A stretch of DNA of 64,000 bases from Cenococcum geophilum. Taxonomy: Eukaryota. The notes beneath the pieces are model-generated. The model saw nothing but the letters and a program-made list of their open reading frames with translations, was not told the origin of the DNA and ran no database searches. The stretch lies in contig CP158635.1 of NCBI GenBank assembly GCA_050273025.1, positions 4,464,001 to 4,528,000 of the forward strand, given 5' to 3'. This document shows, piece by piece, positions 32,801 through 57,320 of this stretch (the first letter of the stretch is position 1; the number at the start of each line of letters is the position of its first letter). The translations under genes and the position numbers were made by a program.

Positions 32801-35800
32801 GCTAGCTACCCCCCTAGGAGCAATTATATGGCAACGAGGCACTACTAGAAGTATAATTAACCTCATATTTATAGACGAAGGCCTATACTAGAGACTCGAA
32901 AGGTATAACCCCGAAGAAAAATGGGCACTTACCCTAGACTATATCCCTATCTAGATACAGCTAGACCTAGATATTAAAGCGTAACTAAATAGAAAAAGAT
33001 ACGCAATAAGGAAGCTTAAGACAAACAGTTTCCTTAATATAGTTAAATAACAACTCTAAGACCTAGAAGAAATCCACCCAATACCAAATAAGTGAGGCTT
33101 ATTGGCTACCCCCGAGGAAATTAACCGAAGACTAGAAAGGATCTAGGCAGCAATTAAAAATAGGCTGGAAGAGCACTACCTGATCTTAAAACTAGGCCCC
33201 TATACGCGACACGCATAGTTTATATAATGCGCAGTTCTGGTTACCAGTTAATAATAAGTAAGAAGGAAATATATAAGCAGCCATAACCCTAAAGATAAGA
33301 GACGATATAAAGATATAAGAAACTAGCTAAAGAATACCCTAAAAAAAGAAGTAAGAAATAACTGGAGACGGTTTATAAATAAGTATACTTTTAACCTAAG
33401 CCTCCCCTATAATAAGGGCCTTTAGGCTATAGCGAAATAGGTAAAAAAAAAGGTAGGGCGCCTAGCAGAAGACCTATACCTACTACCCCTATAAAGAGTA
33501 GGAGAATTACAGGCTATAAACGACAATAATAAGAAGGCAAAGATCCTTATAGAAAGGTTTTTCCCCTAACCAGCTCTAGCAGACCTTAGTAATATTACGG
33601 GCGAAATACTAGTGACTTGCCTACGGGTCGACAGCGACATAATAATAAAGGAAATGGCTAGAACTATTAGCCGCCTTTTAAATAATATAGTACTAGGACC
33701 AAATAGGATTCTAAATAAGGCCCTAAAAACCTGTGGGCCACTTATAGTACCTTGGCTTATAGATATAGCTAAAGCATACTTTGCTATAGGCTACTACCCA
33801 TAACTTAGAAGATTTATAACGACGGTTGTTTTATAAAAAGAAGGTAAAGCAGATTACTTAATCCTAGGAAGCTACCGCCCTATTGCCTTAGAAAACACCC
33901 TTAGCAAGATCTTAGAAAGGGTAATAGCGGAATGCATAGTAGATATAGTAGAGGAACACGCCCTACTACTATAAAGCTAAATGGGGGCAAGAAAGAACCG
34001 CTTAACACTATTAGCACTTACGTTACTCGCTACCACCATTAAATCTACATAGGCGATGCGAAAGGACTTTGTAGTATTAATGCTTAGCCTAAACATTAGT
34101 GGTGCCTACGATAATATACCCTACGAGCGTCTCCTATATATCCTTAAGGTAAAGGGCTTTCTAGAATAGATTATATAATTTGTCTAAGGGTTTATAGGCC
34201 AGAAAGAAACATTACTAGTCTTTAGCGGATACTAAAGCCCCCCTATCGCAGTTGCAACAGGAATACTATAAGGATTACCCCTCTCGCCTATACTCTTCCT
34301 TTTCTTTATAAGCAACCTGCTTAACTCCTTTAAGGAAGGGGCAACCTAGGGGATAGGCTTTATTAATAACACAAACCTAATTATATACGGGCCAATAGCC
34401 GTAGAGAATTGCAGAATACTAGAGAAAGCCTATAATACTTATATAGAATAGGTAAAACGTTATAGAGTTTAATTCTTACCAGAGAAATACCAGCTAATCC
34501 ATTTTATAAGAAAACGTAACTAATCTATAGATCTTTAGCATATAATTTACATCTAAGGCTTTAGGGGTTAACTAGTTTAGGGCCTAAGGGTATTAGGAGT
34601 ATAGGTAGATAGTAAGCTCCGGTAGAGCGTATATGCGGCGCAAGTGGCCCGTAAAGGCCAAGCATAGTTTATTACTTTATCCAGGATTGTTAATTCTATA
34701 TAGGGTCTATGCTTCTAGAGGTCACGCCTACTATATATAGCAGTTGTCCGGCCAACCATAACATATAGATCCAGTATTTGGGCCATTAGAGAAACTAAAA
34801 AGGGCCCCCCTAAATTACTCCTTAAACTACTTTAAAAGGTCTAAATAGCCTGCCTTTAAAGTATTATAGGTGGGTATAAGCGAACGGCCACAGCACTGCT
34901 TAAGAAGGAATCTAATATTCCCCCCCTATAGTTATATATTAAAGCCGCTGTAATATAAAGGATGCAAAATAAACATAACTCTAATATTATAAAGTATATT
35001 AAAACACGCCTAAGTAAACTATGGAGGGACCCTAGGGTGCCCTATAGGAGAATAAACTAACAACCCTAAAGTAGGGAAGAGATATTAGAGAAATAGGTAA
35101 AGAAAGTAGAAGAAAAATGGTGCCGCTTTAGGGCCTAGGCCTATATAGAGGAGAAAGGGAGACGTATAAGAGGTTAGTAAAGATAATAGTAAGATAGAAA
35201 AAGGAGCTAAAGTAGAATATATAAGAATGCCGGGAAACTATCTACCGTAATATAATACTGGTTGGACTAACGCTGGAGAGGTAAATAGGAGTTAAAGGTA
35301 TAGAGGCTGACTTAGGCAAGATGAACCTAAGCTATAGCATGGTTAACGCCATAGGGGGTAAATACTTAAGGGCTCTAAGAAGGCCTAATAAAGGCAGAAA
35401 ATATAATAGCAATACTCTTAAGAATAGGAATAATAGGACTAAAAGATTGGCTTTACTGGGTGGGTGTCCTAGTAGGTAACCTAAGATATAAATGTGGCTA
35501 GCTAAGACAGACACCAAAACACGTAATACTGCTATGCCCCCTACGCACCAATTAAGAAATAATGCTCTTAGTAGCTAGTATAGAGAACTATAATATACTA
35601 CTCTTAACATAAAAAGGCCTTAAGGCGGTTACCCAGTGGCTTATTAGTTAAAATGTGCTAAATTAGTTTTAGGTTATAAGGGAAATAGTAATAGAAGGCA
35701 AGGGGGCGAGTAGTAGGTGCCCCCTAGTAACTCTATAGTAGTAGAGTAATAGTTTATAATACTAGCGCGTCCGTAGGCTTGTTACGGTAGTAGTGGTTCC

Positions 35801-38787
35801 TAAGAAGGTCAAATAGTAAGGTAGTAGAGCACTATAGGCGACTTATAGGCGCTAAGTAGGCGAGTCCTAAAAGGCGGGGAGATGGATTACGGGGTTTTCT
35901 CATTTTTCTTAAATAGAGTTTTCTCCCTATATGTAAATAAGGAGTAGTCTATATAGGCCTAATAGGGATCCGAATCGGACGTTAAGCAATGAATTATTAT
36001 TATATAACTTCTTAGGCGTAGTAGCACTACTTATAGCAATAATACGAACGAAGGGCCTTTTTATAAAAGGAAGAAAAACGTACCTACGCTTTACCTAGAC
36101 GCCTAAATACGAGAAGGCGTTCTAAGACCTTAAAAATGCCTTTACTAAAGCACCTATCCTAGCCCACTTTACACTAGGACGATAACTCTATCTTAAAACC
36201 GACTTCTTAGACTACGTTAATGTAGGCGTCCTCTTCTAGATAGGCAACGACGGTTTCCTTTACCTAGTCGCATTCTACTCGTCTAAGCTTACACTATAAG
36301 AGTATAACTATAAGATCTATAACAAAGAACTCTTTACAATTGTACGAGCGTTCGAAGAATTTTAACTAGAACTCTCCTTAGCAGAGCCCGACTAGCCAAC
36401 TAAAGTCCTTACAGACTATTGTAACCTTAAGTACTTTATAACTATAAAGTAGCTAAACTAACGCTAAGCATGTTAGAACGAGTTCCTCTCTAGTTTTAAC
36501 TTTAAAATTATATATAGACTAGGAGTATAAGGTACTAAACCTAATAGCCTAATACGCCACTCGCAAGACCTTCCTTAGTCTAAAGATAACCCCTATAATT
36601 AGTTTCAACAACAGATAATCCTAAAAGCACGAAATTTAGCCCTAGGTATACTACCTATAATAGAGCCAACTGTACCTTAGCTTTATACTATAGAACTAGA
36701 GTTACCTCCCGAAATTAATAAGCTTATTACCACAGCATATAACACCTCTGTTAACCTATTACTATATTAACTTATTACCGCAAAGACCGTTAGCGCCCAT
36801 ACGCTACCTACTAACCTCTAAAGCTTAGGCCAGATTAATATAGCAGCCTTAGAAGTAAAAGAGAACAGGCTCTATTATAGAGGTTGCCTATTTATCCCTA
36901 ACTTAGAAAATTTACAACAGCAACTAATCTAAATGGCCTATAACCTCCGATTAAGCGGCCACCTAGGTAAAGGAGGAACCTATAAGCTTCTTAGCCGATA
37001 CTACTTCTAGCCAAAAATAATAGACTTAGTTAAACGCTTTATAGGCGCCTGTTACGGCTATAAGCGCGCTAAGGCCTTTAATATAAAGTACTAAGGACTA
37101 CTGTACCCTCTATTAGTACTTATATAATAATAGGCAGATATCGCTATAGATTTCGTTGTTAACCTACCACCTTATAAACGACACGGCCGTACCTATAAGA
37201 ACATCCTTATAATAATATACCGACTTATAAAAGAGCGCCACTACGTTCCAACCAAAGGCGTAGCTATTAGCGACGTTACTAACGCCTTCCTTCGCGAAGT
37301 CTACCGACTATATAGGCTACCTAACTCAATTACGTCCAACCGAGGTATATAATTTAACTCTAATATATAGAGACGAATCTACTAACGCCTTAGCATCTCC
37401 GTTAAGATATCTATATTCTTCTACTATAAAACTACTAGGCAATTAAAAAACGCTAATGCCAGCATAAAAGCGTACCTACGATAAGTAGTCGCCTATAGTT
37501 AAAATAACTGGGTAAATTACCTCCTACTAGGTAAATTCGCAGCGAATAACTACGTCTTAACCACTATAGGACTTACCCCGTTCTTCGCGAATAAGGGCTA
37601 TTACCCCTAATCCGGTATAGAGCCACCAGAACCTATTAATAAGAAACTACCATATAGAAAACGCCTTAAGATGCTACTTACTAACCAGTATACAGACCGT
37701 ATAAAAAATCTACTTAACTACTGCAAGGGAGAAATAGCCTAGGCTTAAGTAAAGTAGGCCTACTTCGCCGACCGCTATAGAACGCCACCACCGGAGATAC
37801 GTGTTAGCGACTGGGTATAGCTAGATATACGCAATATCTCTATATAGAGGCCTATAAAGTCACTCGATTATAAAAACCTTAGCCCCTATCTAATTAAACA
37901 AGTCATTAATAGGGGAGCTGTATATAAGCTAGAACTCCCACCTACCCTAGCTACCCGCGGGATATAGCCTATATTTTACCTATAGCTACTATACCTCTAT
38001 TAGCCTAACCCCTTACCGGGGCAGATATAGCCTAAACCCCTACTAGTACTAATCTGAGATAAGAACGAAGACGAGAACCACGAGGAGTGGACCGTTAAAT
38101 AAATTATTAACTCTAAATACTTTGGCAAAGGCAGAGGACGACGGCTCTACTATAGAGCTATATACACAGGATTCGATATAGATTAGCCAGAATGGTAACT
38201 ATAGGAAGACTTCAAAAATGCAAAGGATCTAATTAGCGACTTTTACTACGCGAACCCACAGAAACCGGGCCTAAGTAGAGATTTTATACTTAATCCTCTA
38301 TAGGAGCCCTTATAGAATTAAACCGTTATACATTACCACGTAAGGGCAAATTGCCGTTAAATTGCGGTAAAGTACGATTACGTAATCGGAATATCGTTGA
38401 GATGTCCAGGAACTTTAACTAGCGGTTAAAGTTATCTAATTGGTCGGATTCTTATATGCCAAGCCTTATTATATAACGTTGTTTCAAACCTTTAGCAATA
38501 CCCCTCTTTCTTTTCTATACCTTAAGTGTCCCTTCTATAATGTATATAGTAACCACAGCGTCGCCGGAGCTCCGCCTCTATAGGAGGGGGGTAGTATTAC
38601 GGAACCCTACCGCAGGGGCCTCCATAGGAGAGCCCCGTGCTCTCGCGCACACCTCGCGTACAGCTTATGTCAGCTACGCGTAGGTATATCACCTCCTTAC
38701 GCCCTCGACCCTTACGATCGATCGCGCAACGTCTTATAGACTCCTTAAATACATACGCTCTATAGCCACTGCCCTCGTTCCGTAACA
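26863..38787 (+). mobile_element. Ty3 chromovirus B (about 6.3 kb of its own sequence) interrupted by a LINE
   Basis: 193-bp LTRs at 26863-27055 and 38595-38787. Perfect [18 protein letters not shown] at about 30140, RNase H, integrase, a chromodomain at about 38080-38270, and PPT AGGAGGGGGG. Confidence 0.93.
30431..36000 (+). mobile_element. Apparently full-length Tad-like LINE (non-LTR retrotransposon), RIP-inactivated
   Basis: TSD up to 14 bp, TATATAACTTCTTA (30417-30430, 36001-36014), and a (TTA)n-type tail. ORF1 has three zinc-knuckle relics at about 31550-31700. ORF2 has an APE domain (YNCG, ILAIQE, NLHHPR), RT (YRPIALENTLSKILE, GLPLSPILF) and a C-terminal CCHC. Confidence 0.92.
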
Positions 38788-39675
38788 CTATCTAACTTAC
38801 TTAGTAGTCTGGGGAGGTCTAGGTAGGCTAGGTAGAAGACTTATAGTTTATAGGGGGAGTACTTAAAATTAGATATAGGATACTATTCTAGGTCCTTATT
38901 GTGGCCAACCTAGCTTATATAGTATTTTAAGACACTACGGACCTTCTTAACTACTAGGATCTCTTTAACTTCCTATTCCTTATCCTCTACAATCTAAATT
39001 AGTGGTGGAGGGTCGTTATACTATTTAGGCAGTAGGTTATTCGCAGCCTTTTATAATCGGTCTAGGGAGAAAATAAGGTAGATCTTTATTAAATCTGGTA
39101 GTTTAACCCTAAAAGAGTGTTCTACCTTCTCTAAAATCTTATATAGACTAGCCATTTAGTGGTCTAACTTGCGGCTTAGCCTCTAGGTTTTCTAGTTCTT
39201 TATTAACACCTATACCTTATCTCCTACTTAGAAGTCTACTTCGCGACAATGCTGATTTACGTTGGCCTCTTTCTTCTCTTACGCCTTTTTTATAATTATT
39301 TAAGCAGTCTCCTAGGCCCTGTACATTCTCTTAGCAAATACCTAGGCCTCTTTATAGCTAAGGCGTTCGCGAGCTATAGTGGGTTTAGTAAGCCTATCCT
39401 AATTAAAGGACGTTTATAGTGTGTACCCGTTAAGTAGTTTAAATAGCGACATCCCTATACTATTATAGGGGAGCGTAAGCTACGCGTAGTCCATTATAGG
39501 CAGTAATTCTAACTAGTTGTCCTAATAGTAGTTTATAAAGGGACGTAGTTGCTAGTTAAGGTACTAGTTTATAATCTTAGTTTAGCTATTAGTCTAAGGG
39601 TAGAATACGGTAGAGAGCTTAATCTTAATCCTAAGGATACGGTAGAATTTATTCTAGAAGTCTAATATAAACTAG

Positions 39676-42600
39676 TGCTACAGTGCTGCAATAAAGTAGA
39701 CTAAATAACTACGTTATAGTATAAAGAGGGGAAGAAGGTGGAAAGGGGGTATTGTATATAAATAGTAGGGCCGGCCGCTAAGTCGCTAGTAGTGGGCCAG
39801 CTAATAGTAGGAAATAGTATAAGATAGTATGAAATAGTATACGTTAGGTTAGTACCATAACAGTACTCCTCTCCCCTAGATGGTTTAGTCCCTAAACTAA
39901 ATAGATAACTTAAAAATAGGCAGTATACGGGGTTGCCTATTTTTTACTATAAAGATATTAGTTCCGCTTACCGCCCTTAACTAAGCTAATAGCGATTTTC
40001 TATACTAGGCATAGAAAATCCTAATTAGTTAGTTTAGTAAGTAAGGTCGGTAGAACTCTATACCACCACCCAAATCAATCCGTATAGCGTTTCTTAGCGA
40101 GAATTTGGCTAATTAGATAACTTTAACCGCTGGTTAAAGTTCTATAACATCTCAACTACTATAAATTTTAATACGGTAGTCGGCCGCGACCTTAGCGTAA
40201 CTTTTCCTTATCTTATGCCTAGTCTAGGGGTCTTAGCTTCTTAGGGTATTGCTTATAAAAGCGCTGTATAGCTTATTTATAACCCTTTAGGTCTTCCTCT
40301 AGCTGCTAGATTATATCCTTATAATATTTCCATTTAATCTTATAAGTTAGGCCCTAGGGGTCTTCGTTATATATATTAAGGATTTTCTTAAACTCCTATT
40401 TATTTTCTATGTTGCCATTATTATCTCTTTCTGCCACTCGTCCTTATATATTACGGCGCTTTATAGTATTAATATTTGCTTAGCTAGGGATCTCTTTAGT
40501 AGCCTAGAGGCGGACCTTAAATATATAAAAGGATTTGTTTACTTAAACATAGTTTAGAAGGTCTACTATAACTACCCCTTAGTATACTACGAGTGTAGGG
40601 TACAGGCCGTCCTATTTATCGTCCTATTTCTTTTTAGGTTTGTTTATCTTTATATTTTCTAAGCTAACTATAACTATATCGCCTTTGTAGAATAACGCGC
40701 TCTCATCCCTACAGGTATTAGTATTATCTTTATAGCGTTATTATAAAATCTAAGCTAGGGCCTTAAGCTATATTAATATCCGCTTAAAGCGGTTGGCCAT
40801 AAAGTCTGCGTAGAAGAACTCCTTCTTTACTTATACTAATAGTATTAGTAAGTAGGGGCCGGCAGGCTTAATTCCGAGGTAAGGGTTAAAGCTATAGTTT
40901 ACAAAAAACGGGGAGATACCTATGCTCTTATTAACTTAGTTATTTATAGCAAACTTAGTAAGCGGTAGGTAGTTAATCTAGTTATTTTATATAAAGCTAA
41001 TAAAAGCACAAAGGTATTTATTTACGGCAGCGTTAATAATTTCGGTTTAGCCGCCTGTTTCTAGGTACTAGGCTAAGCTTAGTTATAAGGTTGTCTTAAG
41101 GCGTTTACTTAGTCGTCGCCAGAAGTTGCTAACAAATTATATACCGCAATTAGAGATAATCATGCTTAGTGCACTATAGAGCTTATATATGTTGTTAATA
41201 AAGCCATTAACTAACTTCTTTATTAAGAGTCCTGTTACTAAAATAAGGTATTATATTTTAGTTAGGCGGTCCATAATAATAAGAATATATTTATATACCT
41301 TACCGTAGCGTTAGTATACTAGTAGCGTTATAATATAGTTAATTAAGATATTAGTCTATAGGTAGGCGGGTAATTTTAGTAGTTTTAAAAAACCGGGTAA
41401 GGTAAAATAGGGGGTCTTAGTGCGAAAGTATAGGGCATAGTCCTTAATAAAGGTAGCCGTAAACTAGGAGATTCCTAGCTACTAGTATATTTGGTTTAAG
41501 AGGTTAAGAGTTTTAACCTAGCTAGGGTAACTAGTAGGGCCGCTGCTATAAGAGTGATAGGTAACTTCTAGGCGGAAGTTTAGGGTATTAGGGATAAAGA
41601 GACGTTAGCGGAAGTAGATCTATCTGTTAACAATACTATATTCTAATTTATCGCAATAGAGTAATTTCCTAATTTTCTTTAGCTAATGGCGAGCTTTTTA
41701 ATTATATAGGGCTGCCACTATATCTCTTCTAAGTTTGTTCTCCTAGTATCTTAGCCAAATTAACTTATTTAGTAACTTTTTAGCTATTTTAGGGTCTAGA
41801 GCGGCTATAAACTTCGCGTTATTAGAGTTACGGGACTTATATAGTAATTCTTTTAAAATTATAGGGTTAACTTTCTAGGGCAGTATAATAACTTAGGCTT
41901 AGTAGCGGAGGCGTTTATTATCGGCGTCCTTAGGCCTTATTCCTAGTAGCTAGCTTAGGGCGTTAGGAAGCGTAGCTTTACTGCTAAGTCTATATATAAT
42001 TATAAAGTTAAACTATAAAAGGAACTCTACCTACTAAACTTAGCGCTAGTTTAGCTGCTTAGTAGTTATAAATATCTATAGGTTTTTATAGTCGGTAATA
42101 ATTTTAAACGGCTCCTTAGTTCCTTACAGCTTAGGACGCTATTCCTTTAAAGCCTTAACAATAGCTAAGAGTTCTTTATTATAGATCTTATAGTTACACT
42201 CTAGCGTAAAGTACTTTGCGGAGAAGAATGCAACCAGTCTTAATTTTCTATTATTATTATACTGGGAAAGGACTCCACTAGAAGCCTAATTTAATGCGTC
42301 TGTCTCTACCACTATTTTCTTTATATAGTTATAGTATGCTAGTACTAGTACTAAAGTAAAGGCTCCCTTAAGGGCCTTAAACGATTTAGCTTATTTTAGT
42401 CTCTATAGCCATCCGATATCCTTTTTTAGGAGTTTTATTATAGGTATAGCAATAGCAGAGTAGCCTTAGATAAATCATTAGTAGAAGTTCGCGAAGCTAA
42501 GAAATTATTATAGTTCTTTAATTAATATCGGGTTCTTCTATTCCTATAAGGCCTATATCTTCTTAGGGTCTATAGTTATACTATTAGTTAAGATAATTAA

Positions 42601-45600
42601 GCCAAGGTATTTTATTTTAGTAGAGTAAAACTTAGACTTATTAATATTAATCTAAAGTCTAGCATTGCCGAGTCTTTAGATAACTTTATTTATATACTTA
42701 GTATACTTAGCGCGTGTTTTAGAAAAGACAAGGATATTATTAAGGTAGGTAGTGTAGTAGTCGTTAAGGGCGTTATATAGAATATGGTTAATATAGTTCT
42801 AAAATATAGTGGGTATATTATAGAGGCTAAATAGTGTAACTAGTATTTTATAAAGTTTAAACTAGGTAATAAATGCTATAAGCTACTTATAGCCCTCCAT
42901 AATCTAGATCCGGTTAAACGCAGTAATTATATTAAGTTTAGTAAAGTACTTAGCACTATAAAGTGCGTTAAGTATCTTACAGATTAGTAGCAGTAGGTAT
43001 TAATTCTTAATAGTAACTATATTTAGGCCTTAGTAGTTATAGTAGATTTATATACCGCCGCCAGGCTTAGTAGCAAGGAGGAGTAATACAGCAGCTAGTA
43101 AGGTCGATTTGCGGATAAAACCCTTATCCAGTATCTTATTAATCCACTTCTTTATACACCTAAGTTTAGCAGGTAAAAGTGGTCTATTTTTATAATACGG
43201 GGCCTAGTTTCTAGGGGTAATCTTAATTTTATAGTCCTATGGTTGGTAAGGGGGCAGCTTATCTACATTTTTAGGGAGGAAGTACTTAATATATTTACTA
43301 AACTCCTTTAATAGGCGTTATAGAATATCTTCGCGGGTCAATCCTGGTTTGCCTTTTAGGAATTTTTTAATATTAGTGTCAACTATCTTCCAATATAAAA
43401 GCTTGGGTTTAGTTTTTAAATTTATCTTAAAAAAGTTATAGAAATAGGGGGAAAGCACTTTACGGGCTTCCTTTATTATATAGTTGCCTTCTACTAGCCA
43501 GCAAAAAGACCTTTTTAATAGGTTTAGTACTTCTATTAGGCCTATAGGCAGCTCTTTAAGCAGCTATTAGTGCTTATTTTATTTAACTAGTTCTACTAGC
43601 TCCACTATATAGATCCTTATTACCTTTACGTCCTTTTATTTATAGAACTGGGTAAAATTAATAGCATAAGTGTATTTAATATTGTCTAGGTTAGGGCGTG
43701 TTTAGTTCTCTAGTGCTACGGCTAAGCTAATATAGCTTAGTCGGCCTAGGGGGGCGAAAACGAGGCGGCGGCCCTATATAGTACGCGCGGGAGATAGGTG
43801 TAAGGTTAGGCGTTACGGTGGCGCGGTTTTTATTATCCGGGTCTTAGTAGTTCTATAGCCAGTCCTTACTATAACGCGAGCTATAGTGTGCGTATATGGC
43901 ATATAGCTTAGTTCTAGGTATTAGGCTAAGCGGTTAAGGTTTAAATAGTACCTAGATTAGGGTTGGATTCTTAGTAGTAGCAGCGTAAAGCGGACCTTCT
44001 TCCTTAGTCTCGGTAGGGCTAGCTAGCCCGTTATTTTAGTCTTAAGTACTAGGGTAGTCCAGTCTTCTACTATCTCGTTTCTTTACAGCTGTATAGGCTC
44101 CCCTTTATTAGGAACGTCTTCTACTATTAGGGCTTTATATATAGTCCTAGGCACTAGGCTTAGTAGTACTAAGTATCCATATAGGGCGTCTCTACTAACA
44201 TCAGCTATCCCCTATAGGAGGTAGTACCTAAAGTAGTAGTCTAAGTTAAAGTAGATCTTAAGTTTTCTAAAGCTAGGATAGGGCTTGTACTTCTAAAGCT
44301 AGGGCATACCTAAGATAATTAGGGTAGTAGGCGAGAGTTTAGTAATAAAAAAGAGTATGGCTTTAGTATAGAGGCCAATTAATATTTAAATAGTAAAGTA
44401 GTTCGTAATAAGCAAAGTTAGGATACTATCTGCGAGGCGCAGTAGCCTAGGTACTAGTAGCTTCTTAATTATAATATTATACTTTCTTATAATAAACTCT
44501 ACGTTAGTAAATACTATTATAGTACTACCGGAGTCTACTAGGCTTACTATATTAATATAAACTTAGGGGTATAGGTTATATAATAAGGAGAGTTAGGTTT
44601 AAATAAGGATTAATTTCTTATTACTATTTACTAATCTAAAATTAAGTAACAGTTTACTAATAGAAAGGACTAATTAATCTAGTAATAGGGACCTAATCTT
44701 CTTGTCTTCCTCCTTATATAGTTTAGACCCTTAGGCGCAACTTAGTCTAAGGGTCTACCTTTTAACGACTAGGGTATAGGGCTGTCTTAATAGGGCGGTC
44801 TAGTGTCCGTTTAGCTAGCGGTATTAGTTTCTATTTTAGTTGGGGTATAGAAAGACAATACCTTACTAACAACGTAGCCGTATTCGTATTCGCTAGCGCG
44901 AAGTCACCAATACTAGGCGTTATTAACGGGTTAGGCTTCTATATAGGGTATAGTTTAAAGTAACTAAGCTATAGGGTTAAAGGGGGGGGGGTTCGTCTGC
45001 TATAGCTATAATAGGCTCTACGGTCGCCGCGTCTATAATAGACTCTACAGTTGCCGCGTCCGTGGTTATTAGTTCGCGTTGTTTAATAGGGTAGTATTAG
45101 GACTAGGTTTACTATCTTAGTAGGGTTATAGGTATCCTTCTAGTAGCTAGGTAGGCTATAGGTAAAGTATAATCTATTATTAACGCGGCGCTTGCGCTCC
45201 GTATCTAAGATTTTATTAAGGTCTATAGGTTCTCTAGTTACTGCTAGGGTTAAGGTTAATATAGAGGCAGGGGCTTAGGTAGGTAGGCGGTAGTTAGCGT
45301 TCTTCTTAAGGTTGGCTTGGTGTATATAGTTCGCGAGGTTTTTAGCAAACATATTTATCTGCTTACTTTAACCTATATAGTCGCTATTATTAATTTTATA
45401 GGCAAGTCTAAGTACCAGCTCTTCCATCTTTAGAGAGATAAACTTTTAGAGTAGGTCCACCTTTTATTTATTTATCTTCTTAGCGCGGACTATTAGCTTA
45501 TTAAGCTCTTCCTTTTAGGACTAGTAATTACACTCGCCTTAGGGGAAATGGTTAAGCTTATTCTTTGCGACCTAGGTTATGTTAAGGACCTTATAGTAGG

Positions 45601-46592
45601 CAGTAAGATCTTTAAGCATATCTTCCTTAGTAGGCCATTTCTACGCAGATATGTTGTTTAGGTTTTTATATATAAGCTCTAGGCCTTACTTAATAAACTT
45701 ATAGGCCTTATCCTTTAGTATATCCGAGATATAAAGGATCTGGAACTAAACTATGTTAAAGTAGTCCTAGTTTTAGTTAAAGACTCCCTTAATCTTAATA
45801 TGCCAGGTCTTAAAATTAGCTTATTATTCTAGTAGGGTGCCTTTTCCGCTAAATATTAGCAGGTCTTTAGATCTCCGTTTTTTCTACTAGGTTACTACCG
45901 TTATTATAGGGGTTAATTGTTTTAGAATGGTAATAGTCTCTATCTAGGAGTTAATAGTTCCTATCTAGAAAGCAATAAGGGCACTAAGGTTTTTATTAGC
46001 TTTTTTATTAGCGGTGTTTATATTATATATACACTATAGTCCTACTTTAATGTTGTTAAGGAACTCGTTAGTATAGTTAATAAGGGTAAGGTAAGCTTTG
46101 CTAGGCTTAAAGGTTTTAAAATACGGTGGGGAGCGGCGGATTATCTACGCGATATTAGGGTATATCTCTATAAATAGGTCTATAAAAACGTCGTAGGGGT
46201 TCTAAGTTTCGGCCATTTTGGCGTTATTAGTGTCGCCTATTTAGGCGCTAAGTAAAAACTAAGGATCGTTCTAGGACTGTACTGGGGACGTATTAGTTTT
46301 AGCAAAGGCGCGTATAGGTTGCGATTACTTTAGGGTAGAGGTTAATTGGCTAGGGTATAGGGAATTAGTAATCGCGATGGGGCGTAAATTAAAGATACCA
46401 CAAACTGCTACAGTGCTGCAATAAAGTAGACTAAATAACTACGTTATAGTATAAAGAGGGGAAGAAGGTGGAAAGGGGGTATTATATATAAATAGTAGGG
46501 CCGGCCGCTAAGTCGCTAGTGGTGGGCTAGCTAACAGTAGGAAACAGTACGAGATAGTATAAAACAGTATGCGTTAGGTCAGTGCCGTAACA
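39676..46592 (-). mobile_element. Ty3 chromovirus C (6.9 kb), inserted in the integrase core of A
   Basis: 187-bp LTRs at 39676-39862 and 46406-46592. Perfect TSD ACTAG. PPT next to 39862. RT YLNNIL (RIP of YLDD) at about 42735. Confidence 0.93.
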
Positions 46593-49500
46593 ACTAGGGA
46601 TTACAGTTAGAGATAATTAATTTAGGAGCGCCGTAGAATTAATAGATATTATTATCGTAAAGGTAAGCTATATCCTTCGCAGTTATAGTCTTAAAGTAAG
46701 GAAGGGAGACGGATTACTTATATAGTTAGTTAATTACTATAAAGGCCGCGTTGTAGCCGTGGGCGTCCTTTAAAAACGACTTAAAGTCTATTATAATATA
46801 TTGCTAAGGGCGTTCTAAAACCGGCAATAGACGTAACTACCTAAAAGTTTAATCCCTAGGGGCATTCGCGCGTTTATGGGCATAGCAGTTTCTAATAAAT
46901 TATTTTATATTAGATAGAAATCCTCGCTAATAGTAATGGGGCGCTAGTAGTTAGTAGGTCTTATCCCAACTAGGGTGCGCTGTTAAGACTTAATAGTGGG
47001 CCTTACGGATTAGCTCTGTCTATAGGTTGTTAATATCTAAAACTATAAGCCGTTTTTAGTATAAGAGCAGTCCTTCTTCTATTTCTAAATTAGGGTTATT
47101 TTTTAAGGCCTAGTTATGGAGGGCCTTTAGGGATTTAACTATATAGTTTATAGTTAAGATGTGGTTAATTAATCCTATTAGCTTATCTAAGAACTCTCCT
47201 TCTATAGGTACTAGCTTATTCTCTTTAGAGCTTAGTTCCTTAAGGATATATAGGTTGAGCTGTTTAGGACGGAGGAGGGCGCGTGTCTAATATTACGCCT
47301 TTAGCTTATCCTAAGGGCCCACGTCCTATTCTCTCTAGGTTAAAGTATTAGCCTTAGAGTTTTATATACCTGGGCGGTATATAATCGTAAAGAAGAATTA
47401 AGAGAGTATTTTAGCCTATTAAGCCTATCGGCTGGTAAGCTGCTTTATTATTATAAAATACTTTAAGGCTTTATAATTAGTATAGACCTTAATCTAAGAG
47501 TTCGTGCCTTTAAGCTCCGCGCGCTATTAAGATAACGATTAAATAATAGCTAGCATTTCTTTATTATATACTTTATAGTTATACTTAACTAGGTCTATTA
47601 TCTTTAAGAAGAAAGTAATAGGGTACTATTTGCCGTCCGAATGTAACTGTAATAGGACTCCCGCTATAACTCCGTTAGAAGCGTCCGTTTTTAGTATTAA
47701 TTTAAGATCTGGGTTATAATAACGTAGAATTAGAGAAAAGATAAGCCAATTCTTTAACTCTTTAAAGGCCTCTATACAGTTATTATTAAATATAAAAGGC
47801 GTATCTTTCTAGGTAAGTTATATAAGAGGCTTTACTATAACTCTATAGTTACGGATAAAGTAGTAATAGAAATTATAAAAGCTAAGGAAGGACTAGATCC
47901 CCTTTATAGTATAAGGGGGCTTTTAGCTATAGATTTCTTTAACCTTCTTAGGGTCAACTTTAATCCTATTTATACTTATAATAAACCCGAGGTACTTTAT
48001 ACGTTTTACCCCAAATTTATATTTCTTAATATTAACTTATAAGCCCGCGTTCTGTAATCTCTCTAGGACCTTCTTAATATAAACTTTATACTTAAGTTCG
48101 TTGTCTAAGTATATAAGGATATTATCTAGGTATGCCGTATAGAACTCGTTAAGGTAGTTAAAAAGGACATCGTTTATATACCTTTGGTATATAGCCGGCC
48201 TATTTATTAACCTAAAAGAAAGGACTTTATATTTATAGGACCTATAATAGGTATAAAACGTTGTTAAATCTTTAAATATAGGGTCTATTTTAATTTAGTA
48301 GAAAGTTTAGCGGATATTAAGTTTGGTAAAGATCTTTACCTAGCTTAGACGTATAAGGGTCTCGTTAATTAACGGAATAGGATACCGATCCTTTTAAGTA
48401 ATAGCGTTTAGCTTTTAATAGTTAATATAAAAAATAAAGGCCTCTATTAGGCTTTTTTATAAATAGGATAGGGGAAGTAGAAGGGGCTTAGCTAGGCTCG
48501 ATAAACCCTTTATTAAGGTTATTAATTAAGTACTACTTTATTACCTTTAGCTTGTCCGTTAATTATTAGTAGAAGGGGCTATATTCTAGCAAGTTATTGG
48601 CTTCTAATAAAATCTTATAATTGTACGTTTAGTAGGGGGGTAGTATATCTAAAGCTGCTTTTAAGAGCGCGTCTTTATGGCTTAAGAGGTAGGTAAAAAG
48701 GAGGCGCTTAACCAGCTCCTCGTTACTTTCCTTAGCTAGCCCTTTTTCCTTCTTGTTAATAATCTAGTTAATTTCATATAAGCTAGTTATAAAAACCTTA
48801 TTATCCTTCTAGTATATATTAAAGTAGAACCCTATAGCACTAATAGCCGTAATATCTAACGTAGGGGGGTTACGTAATAGTAGGGGTGTACGTAATTTCT
48901 AAGGCTTCTAGGGTATTAACCTTCTCGTTCCTCCCTTTAGCTCCTACTGTATCTTTTAGAGGCTATCTTTTGTATTCTATTAGTAGGTCCTCTTCTATAT
49001 AGGTTAGATCTCCGCAACTTAGGCAACTTCTATATTACTATTCGTTCCGCTTTTGTACGTAGAGTTCTCTTTAACCGTAGTACTGTAGGAGAGTATCTTT
49101 ATTAGTATAGGGTTCTTACTAGCTTTATAATGGGCGTCTTCCTATATAAAGGCTAGGTCCTAGTCCCTAATATCCTACTTATAGATAGGATCCGCCTCTA
49201 CGGCTAATATCCTACGGTTAGTTCAGATCTCTTTAATAAAGGAGGATAATTTTGGTTTATCCTTCGGCTAAATAAGCTGCCTTTATTGTATGTTTAGCCA
49301 GATATTAAAATAGAACATCTACTTCTAATTAAGGATTATATTATAGGAACCTAGGTTTAGTATATAGAAGGGTATACTATATAGGCGTTGTTTATTAAGA
49401 GAAATATATAACTTTAATATATAGGTAACCGGCTTACCGGCTTGGCCGTTATAGCCTTTTACTTAGATAGGCTTCTCTAGCTAGGTGGCTTTTATATTTA

Positions 49501-50528
49501 GGAACCTAGCAACGTTAATTATATAGGTAGTATCTATAAAGGCAAAGCTATTTACTCTAGTGTTAATAAGGGCAGTTGTATTAACTCTATATATATTTTA
49601 AGATACTATATATAGAACTATAAAGTATTTTCTACCCATTAACTAACTTAGATTAATCTCTTTAAGATTAATAGGGTACCCTAGGGGGGAGTCTTTCCCT
49701 AGGGTTCTTTTTTTCCTAACTTGTTAGATGTTTCTCCTTCCTCTATCTCCTTAATATCGCCTATATCTTTTAGCTCCGGGTAAGACGAAGTAAAGTATCT
49801 ATCTTTTCCGTAGTTAAAGCACGTGGCTATAGCAGGGTTAATTAGGGTGTTATAGTAGGTATTAGTTGGGGGCGAAGCATATAGTCAATTAGGAGAGGCC
49901 CGCTAAAGGGCAGTTATATCTACCTTAGGTATAGGGGTACTTTCTACTAGTTTTTTAGTGCTAGCCCTAGTAGGTATAATTGTCGGTTTTTAATTACTAT
50001 GGGATTTCTTCTGCTAATTAGTGCGGGTATTAATTCGCCGTAGTTTTAAATCCAATAATAGATATTAGGCTGTAAGTCTTTAGTAGGTTAGTAGGTTGTT
50101 TAGGGCTATTATAATCTTCTCTTATAATTAAACTGTTAGTTTATTATATAGGTCTAATTAGTAGTTTTTAAGGGGGACCTAGCCTTCGCCTGTTAGGTGT
50201 AGGAATTAGGTCTAGAACTTAGCAAAGGATTGATTCGGTCTTATTATTAGGCGATTATAGTTATACCTAGCGTTGCGTACTTTATTCGGGTTTACGTAGA
50301 TAGCCGCTAGGTGCTATAGCATCTTGTTAATAGATGTAAACCGAATAGGTAACTCGTCCTTAAACTTGGCTTGGAGGTGCTTTTAGGCGTCCCTAATAGT
50401 TTAACTAAAGAGGTAAAGTATCTTAGCTTCTTTAGAAAGGAAATGGTTATAGTTAACACGGAGCTTTCCTTATATTTAAATCCTCTAATTCTTAAAGGTA
50501 GGGTCTATCCCGTCAGATAGTGGTTAGG

Positions 50529-53500
50529 TATTAGCGACTTAGTTAATTAAGACATAAGTATGGCAAAAGGGTCGCGCAAGCCTATATGATTGGATTGTTT
50601 ATAAACGAGAATCTAAAGCTAGGGAAAGGAAAGGAGAAGAAGAGCAACGCCGTTCGGTGTTTTATAAGATCTTTAAGTTACGTAATCGCAATATGCGGCA
50701 ATCTATAGTAATCTGTGGTAACTTGCCGGTGCGAAGTTCTGCTAGTGCTGTAACATTACCCCCCCCTCTAAAAAGCCTGCCCTTAGGCTTTGTCGCTAAA
50801 AGTCTTAGTAAGAGAATCTAACTAATTAGACAACTTTAACCGCCGGTTAAAGTTCCTAGATATCTTAACACCTTATATAACTAAGAAATTTCTAGGGCGT
50901 TTTTGTCCTTATATTCTTCTAGTAGCTTATTGTCTTTATTATACTAGTATTCTATCTACTTATCTAGGTACTTTAGCGGTCCGGGTTTGTTGGGGTAACG
51001 GCTATAGAACTCCTAAAGCTTATAGGAACTACCTATAAAGTTCTATATAGGGTACTAAGTAGGGTTTAGGTTATATCCTTTCTAACTAATATAATACTTT
51101 AACGTTCCCTTTACAAGTTTATAGGCTAGCATTTCTTTAATTTCCTATTTATCGTCGCCATTAACTTGAATTGGTAGGGGAGGTTCATTCTTTTATCTGG
51201 GTAGTAGGTTATTTATAGCTTTCCGTAGCTTATCCGGTAAGAAAATAGGGTGAACTTTAATTAAGTCTGGGAGCTTAACCTTATATAAGTTGCCTACTTT
51301 ATTAAGAATCTTATACGGTCCTGCTATTTTATAGTTTAGCTTATAGCTAGGCCGTTCTATCTTCTAGTTCTTTATTATAATCTAGACTATATTACCTACA
51401 GTAAAGTTAGGCTCGCGCCTATGCTTATTTACCTACTATTCTATTAATTTCTAGGCCTTTTTTAGGTTTGTATAGGCTACTTTTTAGGCTTCTTTTAAGC
51501 GCTTAGCGTACTACTAGGCTTCCTTATAAGATAGTTTTTCGCGTACGGTTTGGGGCCCTTCTGGTCTTTCCCAGTTAAAGCTTATATAGGGTAGGTAACC
51601 TATTTCTAGTTAAATAGGGGCAAATCCAGTAGAGTCGTGGGGTAGGGTCGCTTGGGTATAGTCTATTAAGGGTAACAGTTTGGCCTAGTTATCCTAGAAG
51701 TAGTTAATAAAAGGCTAAAGTCTCTAGTCTAAGTATTAATTTACAATTTCCATTTAACTGTTTATTTGGGGGTAATATACTATAGAAAGCTTTAGCTTAA
51801 TGCCTAAGATCCGGGTAAACTTATTCTAAAAGGCTAATATAAACTGCGGCTTGTGGTTGAATACAATAGTGTTTAGTAGTCCGTAAATTTGGTAGACGTA
51901 GTGGATATATAGTTAGGCTGCCTCTTTAGCATTAATATTTTTATAACAGGGAATTAAAAATGGGCGCTTGCTAAAGCGGTTAACTAGGATTATAATTATA
52001 TTATATCCGTTATAGTCTAGAGGTAGCTTATAAAAGTCTATAAAGATATATTGCTAAGGGCGGTTGGGTATTAGAAGGGGTTTTAATAGTCCTAAGGTCT
52101 TATCTTGTGGAATTATGGACCTATGGCAGTTATTATAGTTCCGTATATAGCGGTTAATATCTATAATTATTCCGGGCCAGTAGTAGCGGTTGCCAATAAT
52201 CCTATAGGTCTTATTTTTTCTAGGGTAGGCCGTAGAGACCTAGGTATGTACTTCGGCAATAAGCTAAGTCCGTAAGTTCTATTCCTCTGCTATCACTAGC
52301 CGTTCGCGGTGCTTAAGTAGTCCACTTTTGAGGGACTATAGGCTAGAAACGTTCTTTGCCTTTTTACGGTACTCCTGTAGAGAAGGGGCCGTACAGTTTA
52401 CCTATAGTAGTTTATTAATAAGGTCTAGTTCCATAGAGTTAATAGGGCATATCTCAGTATCTAAAGAGTCTGTATTTAGTTCTGCCCGTATTTAGGAGTT
52501 AAGGTACTCTAGTTATAGTAGCGCTTAGGTCTATAATAAGATCTTTACAACTATCTAGTTATTTATATCCTATTTACGCCTTATAAAAGCGTCTGCACGG
52601 TTAGTAGCACTTAGCCTATATATAATTAGGAAGTTAAACTAAGATAGGGTGTCCGCTTAGCGCGCCTGTCGGGCTATAAGGGCCTTTATTATTATAAAAT
52701 ATTCTAAGGCCTTATAATTAGAAACTACCTAAATAGACTTAGGGGTGCCTTCTAGTTAGGCTCGCTAGTGCTAAAAGCTAGAGATAATAGCTAGTATTTC
52801 TTTATCGTAAATCGGGTAGTTTAGCTTAGCATCTACTATAGTCTTTAAATAGTAAGCAATAGGGTACCATTCTCCGTTTGTCTGCTTTTAGAAGTAAATG
52901 CCAGCTATAATACTATCTAAGGCATTGGTTTCTAGTATTAAGGGCCGTTCTAGGTTAAAGTGGGTAAGTAAGGGAGCAGAGACCAGTCGTTTCTTAAGCT
53001 TATTAAAGGCCTGCCTATATACGGTGTTAAAGTAAAAGGGCCGGTCCTTATAAGTAAGTAGGCTTAGTAGCCGGGTAATTCTGCTGTAGTTTTTAATAAA
53101 GCGTTAGTAGAAGTTATAGAACCTTAAAAATAACTACACCCCCTTTACGGTCCTTAGGGGTACCTATTAGTTAATTACAGCCGTCTTTTTTAGGTCTGCC
53201 TTGATCCCGTTTATACTAATAATAAACCCTAAGTACTTTATACGCTTAATACTAAATTTTAACTTCTTAATATTAGCTTAGAGGCTAGCTTCTTAAAGCC
53301 GTTATAGGACTTTATAGACATACTCTTTATATTCCAGTTCGTTTTTAAAGTAGATTATAATATTATCTAGGTATGCTGTATAGAAGTCATTGAGGTAGTT
53401 AAATAGTACGTTATTTATATATCGTTAGTATGTGGCCGGTCCGTTAGTTAGTCTAAAAGGTAGTACTTTGTATTTATATATTCCGTATCAGGTCCAAAAC

Positions 53501-56500
53501 GTAATAAGGTCTTTTAATTTAGGGTTTATCCTAATTTAGTAAAAAGCCTGGCGGATATTAAGCTTTGTAAAAATCTTAGCTCTACTTATTTAGGCTAAAG
53601 TCTTATTAAGTAAAGGTAGTGGGTAGCGGTCTTTAAGGGTTAAATTATTAAGCTTACGGTAGTTAATACAGAAATAAAGTCCCCTATTTAGCTTTTTAGT
53701 AAAGAGAATAGATAAGTTAAAAGGGGCTTAACTAGGCTTAATAAAGCCCTTATCTAGGTTATTAATAAGATACTACTTTATAGCCTATAATTTGGCAGTA
53801 AATTACTATCGGAGGGGGCTATAGCTAAGGGTAACTACCTTATCCGGCTTAATTTTAATCTTATAGTTATATAGTTAGTGAGGCGGGAGTATATTAGACG
53901 CTGCTTTAGAGAAGGTGTTTTTAAATTTCTGGTATTAACGGGGCAGTTTCTATTCTACTAGCTTCTTATCTATAAGCTCGCCTTTCTCTTAGGCTAGGGC
54001 TTCTTTCTCTTTAATTATTTAATTAATTTCGTATAAGCTAGTTATAAAGGCAACGGTATTAGGCTAAACTAGGTTTTAGTAGAATCCTATAGCGCTAATA
54101 TAGCAGATATCGACTAGTAGGAGGTTTATAGGTTTCTTTACAAATGTTTATTGGGCCGTATTTTGCAGTATAGGGTTTATAGTCTTCCTTAGCTCGCGTT
54201 CTATTTTCTATAAGTTGTCCTTCCGGTTTATTAGTTTGGTATATTGTCTAATATCCCTAGCCTTTCTTTATAGCTGCGTAGGGCCTAAGTTCTCTATTAG
54301 GGACTTAGCTAGGCCACTACTAACTTCCTAAGTCTCTAGTGTGGGTGGTGTAATATAGATAGTCTAGGGGCGGCGTAGTATACAGATCCGTTACGGATTA
54401 AGCTATATATCCTTCTTAAAAGCCTAGTCCCTACGCGTCGCATCAGCCTAGTAAACGGTGTTTATCTACGGCTATATAAGGTTTTCCATTATAATACTAA
54501 TCTCTTTTATAAAGGAAGGTGTTAGGGGCATAGTTTCGGGCTAAATAAGCTACCTATTCCGTATGTTAAGCTATAAGCCTAAATAGGCTAGCTATTTTCT
54601 CCTTAAGATTATATTATAGCTTCTAAGGTCCGTAATAAGGAAGGGGATATTATACTACCTTCGTCCGTTAACGCGGAGGTAGATCTATAAGATAGTTATA
54701 ATAGGTAGTTCTATCCGTCCGTTATAACCGCGAATAGGGACTAGTTTAGGCAGTTCTTTAAGGGGTATATTTAAAAAGTTAGCCAGTTTTACAGCGCACT
54801 TTATATTAATTAAGGTAAAGGTATTTACTTCTAAGTTAGCTAAAGCAGAGGTTAAAATTTAATATCTATTGCGAAATAAAGTATAAGGGATAGTATAGCT
54901 TCTTCTACTAACTAGCCGATCTAGATTAATATATAATATATTAATCCCTTTTAACCCTAAAGAGGAGTCTTCCTCTAAGGTTCCTCTTTTTCCGGCTCTA
55001 TACTATCCTCCTAAATTAATAAGACCTTATTTATCTTTACCTTTATTAGGTAGTTCCTTATAGAGTAGCCTATTTAATCGTACAAGAAGCAAGCTTTTTA
55101 ATCACTAAGGGCCTATATATGGGGGTCGCTATATATAGGCCGGATGTACACTAGGCCTGCAGTAGGGGTAGCTGCGCGGCTAGCTGCTAGGTTAACTATA
55201 GGAGTTACTAATTATATCGGGGCACTATAGGCCGTACTTATAGTACTTATAGCCTAGTTTGCAAGGTTTCTAGTTTTTAGCCAGTTAGTACGTGCCTTAA
55301 TTTAATAAAGGCCTTAGTTAATAGCTAGGCAATAGTCCGTAAGTTCCTTTAACGTCTATACCGTAATATAAGCTAGTAATACGGCCCGCTATAGGTTTAG
55401 GGTAAGCTTATTAAAGAGGTCTAGTAGTAGGTCTTCCTAGGGGATCTAGGCCTATCCTACTAGGTATAGAAAGCGGGTTTAAAAGGCTAAAAAGGTCTCC
55501 GTTATTTTTATTTTTAGGCTTTTATAGCTAAGGCGGGCGTTCTATACTTTAAAAGGGTCTTTATAAATAGAAGATAAGTATTTAATTATTTCTTCTTTAA
55601 AGATAAAGGGGTCTACTAAGTCTTTAGTATATTACGGGCGTAAATACATTTAGGCGTCTCCGCCAGTACGGCCGAAAACGTAGGCTATTCTGGCTTAGGC
55701 GTTAGGGAAGTAGTCTATATTAACTTTAAGCTTATTCTATAATTAAAGCTTTTAATTATTAAATATAGGGTTAGTTCTGTCTGTAAGTAACGGGGGATCC
55801 ACAACCTTTACTAACCGCTTTAGTGCTGTATAGGCCTTAATAGATCCACTAAGGCGCTAGAATAGGGCCTAAAGGACTATAGTAAGTCTTTGGTTATTTA
55901 ATAATGACTTATTATTAGATATAGGGGTATCTCTGGCTTTAAGCAGCTCTTATAGTTGTTTAATTTCGGCATTAGCAGCCGTAAGCTCCGCCTAAGGGGT
56001 TAAAACATTAATTGTTTCTTTGTCTGAAGTATTTAAGGGTCCTATAGCTGCTTTACCTACTACTATAGTTTATGGCATAGTAGTAGGGGTATTAGGTAAT
56101 TCCGGGTAATTTCTTTAGAGGTTCTAGTCTGTGTATATTTTATAGGTTCTTTCCTTAGGGTTCTATTCTTTTTTTTTAGGTCCTATCCTTATGGTCCTAG
56201 TAATGTTCTTAGGATCCTATTCTATGTTCTTATAGATATATTTAAGTTCCTTCTTAGGAAGAAAGAGTAGAGTGAGCTTTAGATAATATTAGCGACTTAG
56301 TTAATTAAGACATAAGCACGGCAAAAGGGTCGCGCAAGCCTATACGATTGGATTGTCTATAAACGAGAATCTAAAGCTAGGGAAAGGAAAGGAGAAGAAG
56401 AGCAGCGCCGTTCGGTATTTTATAAGATCTTCGAGTCACGTGATCGCAATATGCGGCAATCTGTGGCAATCTATGGCAACTTGCCGGTACGAAGTTCTGC

Positions 56501-56513
56501 TAGTGCTGTAACA
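50529..56513 (-). mobile_element. Ty3 chromovirus D (6.0 kb), inserted in gag of A and related to A in gag/pol
   Basis: 227-bp LTRs at 50529-50755 and 56287-56513. Perfect TSD TTAGG. The PPT and adjacent AAGCCTGCCCTTAGGC are shared with A. RT, RNase H, integrase and chromodomain relics. Confidence 0.93.
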
Positions 56514-57088: not shown

Positions 57089-57320
57089 TATGACGGCTTA
57101 TATAAATGCCTCTAAACCAAAGCTTGTGGATTGCTATCTAGTAAAGATACTAAGCTAAGGAGAAGAAGAAGAAGGAGAATCGTTTAGGGGTAGTAGGTAG
57201 ACATGTCACGAGGGCCGCTAAGGCGCTAGTGGTAAGCGAGCCAATAGCGATTTTCCATGCCGGGCATGGAAAATCCTAATTGGTTGAATGTGGCAGGTAA
57301 CGCGCACTAGCACCGTCACA
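57089..57320 (-). repeat. 5' LTR of element A
   Basis: Direct repeat of 26520-26751. Ends CCGTCACA, then TSD GGAAG. Confidence 0.93.

Follow-up and report, generated by a model that had tools for sequence, protein, structure and literature searches.

A putative portable palindromic cassette in the 3' ends of Ty3 and Ty1/copia retrotransposons of Cenococcum geophilum

How can one short non-coding sequence be nearly identical in retrotransposons that are otherwise deeply diverged? The question is raised by a 64,000-nt stretch of the Cenococcum geophilum genome (assembly GCA_050273025.1, contig CP158635.1, positions 4,464,001 to 4,528,000, forward strand; hereafter the window, with positions counted from its first letter), in which three Ty3 elements, termed B, C and D, carry a common palindromic module in their 3' untranslated regions (UTRs). 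Non-coding cis-elements of retrotransposons with long terminal repeats (LTRs) are usually family-specific and fast-evolving. A first-pass annotation had located the three copies and described them as a 48-bp module. Reading of the sequence confirmed positions and strands, and the palindrome pattern matches at these three sites only. The sharing stands as well, over a different length: repeat finding and self-blastn delimit a common block of 57 nt in B, C and D, with a pairwise identity of 84% (E 5.9e-10). The copies and the tail of the block in D are the following.

38396-38452, plus strand: module copy B, with a 15-nt leader, the palindrome at 38411-38433, the CCAATTGG box and the TCGGATTCT tail (nhmmer E 8e-19)
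40100-40156, minus strand: module copy C, with the palindrome at 40119-40141 (nhmmer E 1.8e-17)
50813-50869, minus strand: module copy D, with the palindrome at 50832-50854, perfect 11-bp arms and one central base (nhmmer E 1.1e-17)
50802-50812, minus strand: tail of the conserved block in D, a GCCAAG-type motif altered by transitions to ACTAAG (by comparison with the family consensus)

The module is a non-coding cassette of about 57-70 nt, composed of a short leader, a 23-nt palindrome, a CCAATTGG-type box and a tail with GCCAAG. The palindrome is built of 11-bp arms around one central G or C, and the left arm of copy B carries one C-to-T change. Tails equivalent to that of D can be read from the sequence at about 38453-38465 in B and 40088-40099 in C. 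Nearly all differences between the copies are transitions of the type made by repeat-induced point mutation (RIP), as the annotation had held. Among the 57 columns of the block, 43 are invariant, 12 vary by transitions only and two include transversions, both in copy C; copies B and D differ by nine transitions and no transversion. The palindrome pattern used in the window (23 nt, 19 specified bases, up to three mismatches) matched at only three sites in 64 kb, each on both strands, with 0.10 expected, and none of 100 shuffles gave six matches. A profile built from B, C and D revealed no fourth copy in the window with nhmmer; a weak match at 55937-55965 (E 0.27) was dismissed on reading the sequence.

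From the chromodomain-like end of pol to the module there are about 30 codons in C and D, and in both the palindrome has a TAA in the pol frame. The module is thus considered non-coding, and its reading as a coding tail of pol was rejected, since the TAA interrupts the pol frame in both palindromes. Coordinates, domain matches and the TAA agree with the annotated place between pol and the polypurine tract (PPT) in B, C and D. Read from the sequence, the 57-nt block ends about 142 nt from the LTR in B, 237 nt in C and 54 nt in D. The host elements are nested in a fourth one.

26522-57316, minus strand: outer Ty3 element A, related to D, with B, C and D nested inside (LTRs 26522-26747 and 57091-57316)
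26863-38791, plus strand: Ty3 element B, lineage F1 (LTRs about 26863-27058 and 38595-38791; PPT about 38582-38591)
39676-46592, minus strand: Ty3 element C, lineage F2 (LTRs 39676-39862 and 46406-46592; PPT about 39866-39877)
50529-56516, minus strand: Ty3 element D, lineage F3a (LTRs 50529-50758 and 56287-56516; PPT about 50759-50769)

Self-comparison indicates that B, C and D were each inserted into A, and B is flanked by a 5-bp target duplication (CTATC). All three are chromodomain-type Ty3 elements. C and D retain matches to RVT_1 and RNase H in one frame with RIP stops read as X, and D additionally matches the integrase zinc-binding and SH3_Tf2-1 domains; A, B and a further element G were placed by tblastn, with B on the plus strand. 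No open reading frame (ORF) of at least 150 aa is left in 30000-58000. The LTR pairs of B, C and D are distinct from one another, and identity in the reverse transcriptase (RT) region is 44% between B and C, 42% between B and D and 37% between C and D. Element A, a sister of the module-bearing metagenome locus L062 in the RT tree, has lost the palindrome through a deletion of about 45 nt, while the box part persists near 26810-26840.

Against this divergence, the module stands out as the best conserved part of the elements. The internal regions were aligned globally with RIP-aware scoring tolerant of transitions, and 57-nt windows were ranked. In each of the three pairs, the module ranks first.

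C and D: module 46 of 57 matches; runner-up window 42 (RT core)
B and D: module 48 of 57 matches; runner-up window 37
B and C: module 48 of 57 matches; runner-up window 46 (RNase H)

In purine/pyrimidine space, the module reaches 55, 57 and 55 of 57 and the best other windows 49, 48 and 52. C and D share an overall nucleotide identity of 46%, with a median of 27 matches per 57-nt window against 46 in the module. The comparison of identity inside and outside the module, which the annotation had proposed as a check, thus shows 3' regions that are not equally similar.

The distribution of the module was extended by a search of metagenome contigs with an exact-arm pattern, which yielded at least 124 loci; all metagenome copy counts and family sizes given here rest on these listed loci. 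Three metagenomes (Ga0307507, Ga0307515 and Ga0193728) account for 114 of them, and their loci are RIP-type variants of the window families (L062 resembles D, L065 resembles C and L068 resembles B). The contigs probably derive from the same or a close fungus, and hence add paralogues rather than independent species. A profile search over the 531 kb of loci found at least 135 places. Once ten loci with an unrelated repeat, a single weak variant and locus duplicates were set aside, at least 121 unique copies remain, three in the window and at least 118 in metagenomes. As a control for chance, the same pattern gave 16 scattered matches in a prokaryote genome collection of 596 billion bases, and scanned viral contigs gave none. 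No intact element copy was found among the loci examined, which are all heavily RIP-mutated; no ORF in the listed loci exceeds 470 aa, and the copies listed have TpA/ApT values between 1.25 and 1.96.

The ten loci that were set aside (L003, L013, L038, L056, L057, L066, L071, L080, L099 and L119) hold an interspersed repeat of about 150-200 nt with an identical 23-nt palindrome. They come from five other metagenomes, in DNA of 35-47% GC, carry a second TTAACCGG motif after the palindrome and are otherwise unrelated to the fungal block. The palindrome may occur there by chance or as a common protein-binding half-site.

Clustering of the upstream flanks assigned 113 of the 121 listed copies to six retrotransposon families, and left five singles and three copies with too little flank to class.

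F0: at least 32 copies, Ty3
F1: at least 31 copies, Ty3, includes B
F2: at least 19 copies, Ty3, includes C
F3: at least 11 copies, Ty3, includes D
F4: at least 11 copies, Ty3, module inverted relative to pol
F5: at least 9 copies, Ty1/copia

To judge from these sequences, five deep Ty3 lineages and one Ty1/copia lineage carry the block. In an RT tree of 33 sequences, F0, F1, F2, F3 and F4 are set apart by branches that are well supported and 0.4-1.1 changes per site long. The F5 pol shows, by eye, the domain order protease, integrase, RT and RNase H. It has 55 homologues at 33-66% identity, with named hosts including Penicillium, Colletotrichum and Chaetomium, and F5 was assigned to Ty1/copia because most of these homologues carry PF07727 (Ty1/copia reverse transcriptase); some carry PF00665 or PF13976. 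Pfam gave no match on the RIP-mutated copia pol of L070, and the class rests on the homologue search.

The place of the module in the elements is consistent. Among the 70 listed copies with at least 1300 nt of upstream sequence, 52 have an LTR-retrotransposon pol on the same strand within 1200 nt upstream, one has pol on the opposite strand and 17 are without pol (five of F4, seven of F0 or F1 with an interrupted upstream region and five singles). The end of pol precedes the module by about 110 nt in the consensus of F1, 20 nt in F2 and 40 nt in F0. In F5, it does so by 57 nt in seven of the nine listed copies, with a pol match farther upstream in one of the other two and too little upstream sequence in the last. 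A polypurine run follows 16-315 nt past the module, at a subfamily-specific spacing, among the copies listed. The main palindrome lies upstream of the PPT in all six listed families, with one copy per element. Where F4 copies have enough downstream sequence, the opposite strand carries pol downstream of the module, its integrase part closest to the module, and a polypurine run (seen as a C-run) is found about 135 nt from the module on the side away from pol. Homology among the 11 listed F4 copies stops 374 nt from the module, at the expected LTR end. In L048, a pogo/Fot1-like transposase (1682-3391; Pfam DDE_1, E 6e-27) is located just beyond the LTR end of an F4 element. Short non-autonomous elements retaining the module, searched for as the same LTR within 4 kb upstream, were not found.

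How the block came to be shared can be approached from its borders. RIP-aware consensuses of 11 subfamilies were compared by local alignment, giving 51 between-lineage pairs with identities of 81-97%. In 48 of these 51 pairs, the alignment begins 2-15 nt ahead of the palindrome, and in 45 it stops 8-37 nt past it; the longer alignments are few and represent mosaics. A stretch of 100 nt at 94% is common to copia family F5 and Ty3 subfamily F3a, to which D belongs, and another, of 64 nt at 97%, to F0a and F4, which are distant on the RT tree and carry it in opposite orientations relative to pol. Mosaics include F1c, of F1-type upstream with an F0-type downstream block, and L061, with an F0-type RT and an F2-type flank. 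The F5 LTR also matches the LTRs of the Ty3 element A, over about 75 nt and at 88-93%. Convergence cannot yield such identities, and the superfamilies are without alignable non-coding ancestry, which argues for horizontal exchange between co-resident elements. The block is hence best described, on this comparative evidence, as a portable cassette moved between lineages by recombination. This bears out the annotation's proposal of a portable element exchanged between families, given the five Ty3 lineages and one Ty1/copia lineage, sharp common borders and mosaic 3' ends. The proposed route of template switching holds up less well, as it cannot alone account for the inverted F4 copy.

The module has moved together with a second cassette, pal2, which consists of a CCAAT-type box, a palindrome of 25-27 nt and an inverted CCAAT-type box.

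39976-40031, minus strand: pal2 in the 3' UTR of C, about 69 nt past the module
26662-26717, minus strand: pal2 in the 3' LTR of A (U3 part)
57231-57285, minus strand: pal2 in the 5' LTR of A

The copy in the UTR of C is 85% identical to those in the LTRs of A. The annotated view that flanks and LTRs are unrelated therefore holds for the LTR pairs of B, C and D and fails for this part of the 3' UTR of C. At least 78 unique copies of pal2 are found in the data, alongside the module in most subfamilies. In F1b and F2, pal2 follows the module at 23-75 nt and shares its orientation; it is inverted in F0b, F0c and F1c, precedes the inverted module in F4, and is located past the PPT, within U3, in A and F5. 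A third motif group, seen by eye and in consensuses only, is made up of ATTGCCG-type repeats with a CACGTG or TTACGTAA-type palindrome and occurs at 38330-38392 before the B module and at 50690-50720 inside the D LTR; in another F3 subfamily, it sits before the PPT.

What the module does is less certain than how it is distributed. Our favoured reading, with a probability of roughly 0.4, is that of a cis-acting hairpin that the genomic RNA or cDNA carries at its 3' end, for pairing or host-factor binding. The cassette would act as a hairpin in the 3'-terminal genomic RNA or the first cDNA strand. There, it might pair with the same palindrome on a second RNA (dimer linkage) or, alternatively, be bound by a host factor needed by both superfamilies. 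Pairing or RT pausing at the common hairpin could make it a favoured template-switch site between co-packaged RNAs. Switching there would account for the mosaic 3' ends as well as for the uniformity of the block. The two superfamilies do not use the same Gag and RT, which makes a host factor, or the palindrome on another RNA, the more probable partner. An RNA or cDNA hairpin is favoured because both cassettes always lie in the 3'-end stretch of the transcript, on either side of the PPT, because orientation is free, as for a self-complementary structure, and because the main palindrome is never inside the LTR, where a promoter element must lie.

The palindromes themselves carry signatures that bear on a hairpin. 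In all 121 listed copies, the main palindrome is centred on G or C, never on A or T, and both states occur in five of the six families, largely though not fully sorted by subfamily. This change was not made by RIP, since it is a transversion, and the flip of a hairpin loop can produce it. Among 75 listed pal2 copies, with RIP derivatives counted, a symmetric pair reads C..G in 45 and G..C in 29, with one T..T not assigned; no G..G or C..C state occurs. Both patterns would fit hairpin-templated copying or selection for self-complementarity, and they do not separate RNA from single-stranded DNA. All four RNA folds computed show the predicted 10-bp hairpin.

Several observations weigh against a hairpin acting in RNA or cDNA. 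Folding energy is no better than in shuffled sequences (z -0.4 to -1.3). The arms vary solely by RIP-type transitions, and the main palindrome is without covariation; the metagenome scan demanded exact arms, and arm invariance there is partly by construction. An invariant sequence is as compatible with protein recognition as with structure. The non-palindromic flanks are also conserved, yet F4 reads their complement, and the F4 inversion cannot come from template switching. The copies are all RIP-mutated and dead and stem probably from one species or close relatives, and their identity may reflect recent exchange rather than long purifying selection. Known dimerisation sites are located in the 5' leader and have the palindrome in a loop, not in a 3'-end stem.

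Further RNA-level searches gave little. Rfam 15 covariance models returned no match up to E = 1 on both strands of 38000-51200, and tRNA genes were absent both from the window and from the 40 loci scanned, out of at least 124. For cyclisation between the 5' and 3' ends, duplex energies of leader and module were no better than those of random internal windows, a test that RIP-degraded sequences make weak; the fraction of 300 control windows that pair with the leader at least as well is 0.11 for B, 0.45 for C and 0.36 for D. In the RNA raw-read run X21, 51 of 9.29 million reads were placed, with depth in three of 30 bins: those of the B and D LTRs (38447-38893 and 50516-50962) and, as a trace, 49175-49621. 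Depth was zero in the bin 38000-38446 and in the bin of the C module (39788-40234). Contigs of the RNA libraries X15 and X18 cover the stretch from module to LTR of a B-like copy (38390-38757), which is no proof of transcription, as DNA is possible in such libraries. At 50759-50769, a G/C run that is the PPT of D, contigs of two RNA libraries reach word depths of 57,000-78,000, with an extreme at 50767; this peak is probably a low-complexity artefact.

The main alternative to the 3' hairpin, possible if somewhat unlikely, is that the cassettes are double-stranded DNA sites for dimeric transcription or chromatin factors of the host, forming an enhancer-like cluster beside or in U3. The palindromes are invariant in sequence, the order and orientation of both cassettes are unconstrained, and pal2 lies between two inverted CCAAT-type boxes in U3 of element A and of the copia family F5. 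A CACGTG or TTACGTAA-type box is found ahead of the module in four of the six family consensuses, and F4 has a TATATAGG motif after the cassettes; CCAAT, CACGTG and GCCARG are, as we assume, sites of fungal factors. The palindromic boxes of Sireviruses were likewise interpreted as transcription-factor targets (PMC2829016). Two points speak against such sites. The main palindrome is upstream of the PPT in six of six families and is thus never copied to the 5' LTR, and near-identity over 57-70 nt exceeds the needs of a cluster of short sites.

Unlikely, in our view, is a block devoid of function, whose palindrome stalls RT or DNA polymerase while template switches copy patches among families, amounting to concerted evolution of a recombination hotspot. 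Mosaic 3' ends and patchwise sharing are what such a hotspot would leave, the central-base flips and the coupled double change in pal2 are obtainable from hairpin-templated copying without selection, and element A lost the palindrome yet kept the rest of its 3' end. A hotspot gives no account of the first arrival in six lineages of two superfamilies at the same relative place, nor of the retention of leader, box and tail with the same boundaries. It also requires heterologous RNAs in one particle, which itself implies a common pairing or packaging signal.

An independent miniature mobile element inserting into retrotransposon 3' ends is very improbable. Sharp borders, palindromic structure and both orientations relative to pol would suit such an element, but neither target-site duplications nor terminal repeats are seen at the block borders, the place is fixed within each family, and no copy lies elsewhere in the 64-kb window. 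The annotation had asked for scattered copies as a sign of a mini-transposon; the copies are not scattered and sit in retrotransposon 3' regions, with the 113 of 121 listed copies in six families. Simple recent common ancestry of B, C and D, suggested by their being chromodomain-type Ty3 elements of one genome, can be dismissed with near certainty, as it is refuted by the RT identities of 37-44%, by the C-D contrast between module and remaining sequence (46 against a median of 27 matches, 46% overall) and by the block in a Ty1/copia family.

If the 3' hairpin reading is extended to its limit, all LTR retrotransposons of the fungus, Ty3/gypsy and Ty1/copia alike, would rely on one 3' hairpin cassette, tuned to one host factor, that enables RNA pairing and co-packaging across superfamilies and the trade of cis-elements, even of whole 3' ends with LTR parts. 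This extension is doubtful; if true, the cassette would serve retroelement replication as a common currency. What gives the locus its interest is a non-coding block better conserved than the RT core and common to both great superfamilies, within mosaic 3' ends. The comparisons offer direct sequence evidence that regulatory or replication modules may be exchanged between unrelated retroelements in one genome, and sharing among otherwise unrelated elements suggests dependence on the same helper. The 23-nt palindrome with its box could serve as bait for a host or element factor, and the block as a marker with which recombination between transposon families could be followed in fungal genomes affected by RIP.

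Other repeats surround the elements. Element G is a minus-strand Ty3 element at 8905-16854 with 424-nt LTRs that are 91.5% identical, a long branch in the RT tree and no module. The pol of B is interrupted at 30461-36005 by a 5.5-kb repeat of unknown class that matches L017, L033, L055 and L005 at 86-87% and showed no similarity to Ty3, copia or pogo queries. Three tandem 96-nt units (74-80% identical) lie at 58602-58926, about 1.3 kb past the 5' LTR of A, where G+C begins rising. Direct and inverted repeats of 71-193 nt (81-97% identical) are clustered at 21431-22833 in a region of normal G+C, and the G+C-normal ends of the window have two short repeats in common (2120-3015 and 59036-59141; 40 nt at 95% and 74 nt at 88%).

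Among known systems, retroviral 3'-UTR elements include the constitutive transport element of Mason-Pfizer monkey virus, the direct repeats of Rous sarcoma virus (RSV) and the RSV enhancer just upstream of the 3' LTR. The module resembles these in its place between the last gene and the 3' LTR, in its twofold-symmetric hairpin and in a putative dependence on host factors. They belong to vertebrate retroviruses and are not known to occur across superfamilies.

The annotation recognised no described equivalent, which stands to the extent that full-text searches found no 3' palindromic block common to fungal Ty3 and copia elements, with supplements (e.g., for the extended CHS of PMC5445492) outside their scope. 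The available portion of PMC12910237, on transposon expansion and RIP in an ectomycorrhizal ascomycete, contains no mention of a palindrome or hairpin. Related motifs are in print, however, namely the boxes of Sireviruses and, in GalEa elements, the Conserved Hairpin Site (CHS). Palindromes drive genomic RNA dimerisation in Ty3, Ty1 and HIV-1, and Ty3 requires 3' cis sequences (PMC11381356). The 3' cis-elements of yeast retrotransposons are the 3' half of the bipartite primer-binding site (PBS) of Ty3 and CYC3 of Ty1, and the dimerisation sites are PAL6/DS, PAL1-2 and the DIS (PMC11381356). The module is comparable in that these are short cis-acting RNA sequences for reverse transcription, some 3'-located, with palindromes mediating RNA-RNA pairing (PMC11381356). 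The yeast 3' elements act through complementarity to tRNAiMet or to the 5' leader (PMC11381356), whereas the leader complementarity of the module, set against Ty1 CYC3, is no better than in controls. Known dimerisation palindromes are 6-nt loop sequences of the 5' leader (PMC11381356). A DIS/PAL-type site, with its palindrome in the loop of a 5'-leader hairpin, was rejected by position, as the palindrome here forms a stem in the 3' UTR.

Closer in host range is the CHS of GalEa, a fungal copia group, with an 'extended CHS' of 33-62 bp conserved between families within one species (PMC5445492). Both are conserved palindrome-based hairpins in non-coding sequence of fungal LTR retrotransposons, the 9-mer CTAATTAGT named in PMC5445492 is also present in module copy D, and F5 resembles GalEa, by eye, in an ADxxTK-type RNase H end. 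The CHS sits right after the 5' LTR in the place of the primer-binding site and is confined to GalEa (PMC5445492), whereas the module lies at the 3' end before the PPT and is common to Ty3 lineages. An identification of the module as a CHS, in which CHSeq1 pairs with CHSeq2 next to the 5' LTR, was rejected on its place 17-296 nt before the 3' PPT; the 5' ends of F5 fall outside the loci.

In Sireviruses, a group of plant Ty1/copia elements, the palindromic boxes are built on a CGG-CCG core, are placed upstream of the TATA box, with further copies where env begins, and are near-identical across very divergent elements (PMC2829016). These repeated-motif (RM) boxes and the inverted repeat flanking the PPT resemble the module in being dyad-symmetric, non-coding, hairpin-capable and near the 3' LTR, in their near-identity despite very low overall similarity and in having some copies outside the LTR (PMC2829016, PMC4728375). 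The core of the module palindrome is CCG-G-CGG, with everted triplets relative to CGG-CCG. Sirevirus boxes are short, occur in many tandem copies mainly in U3 and belong to one plant copia genus (PMC2829016, PMC4728375). A classification of the module as an RM box was rejected on this tandem arrangement in U3, given one copy per element upstream of the PPT in six of six families. The module differs from the Sirevirus boxes as a single fungal block of 57-70 nt upstream of the polypurine tract, found in Ty3 and Ty1/copia elements and apparently exchanged between them.

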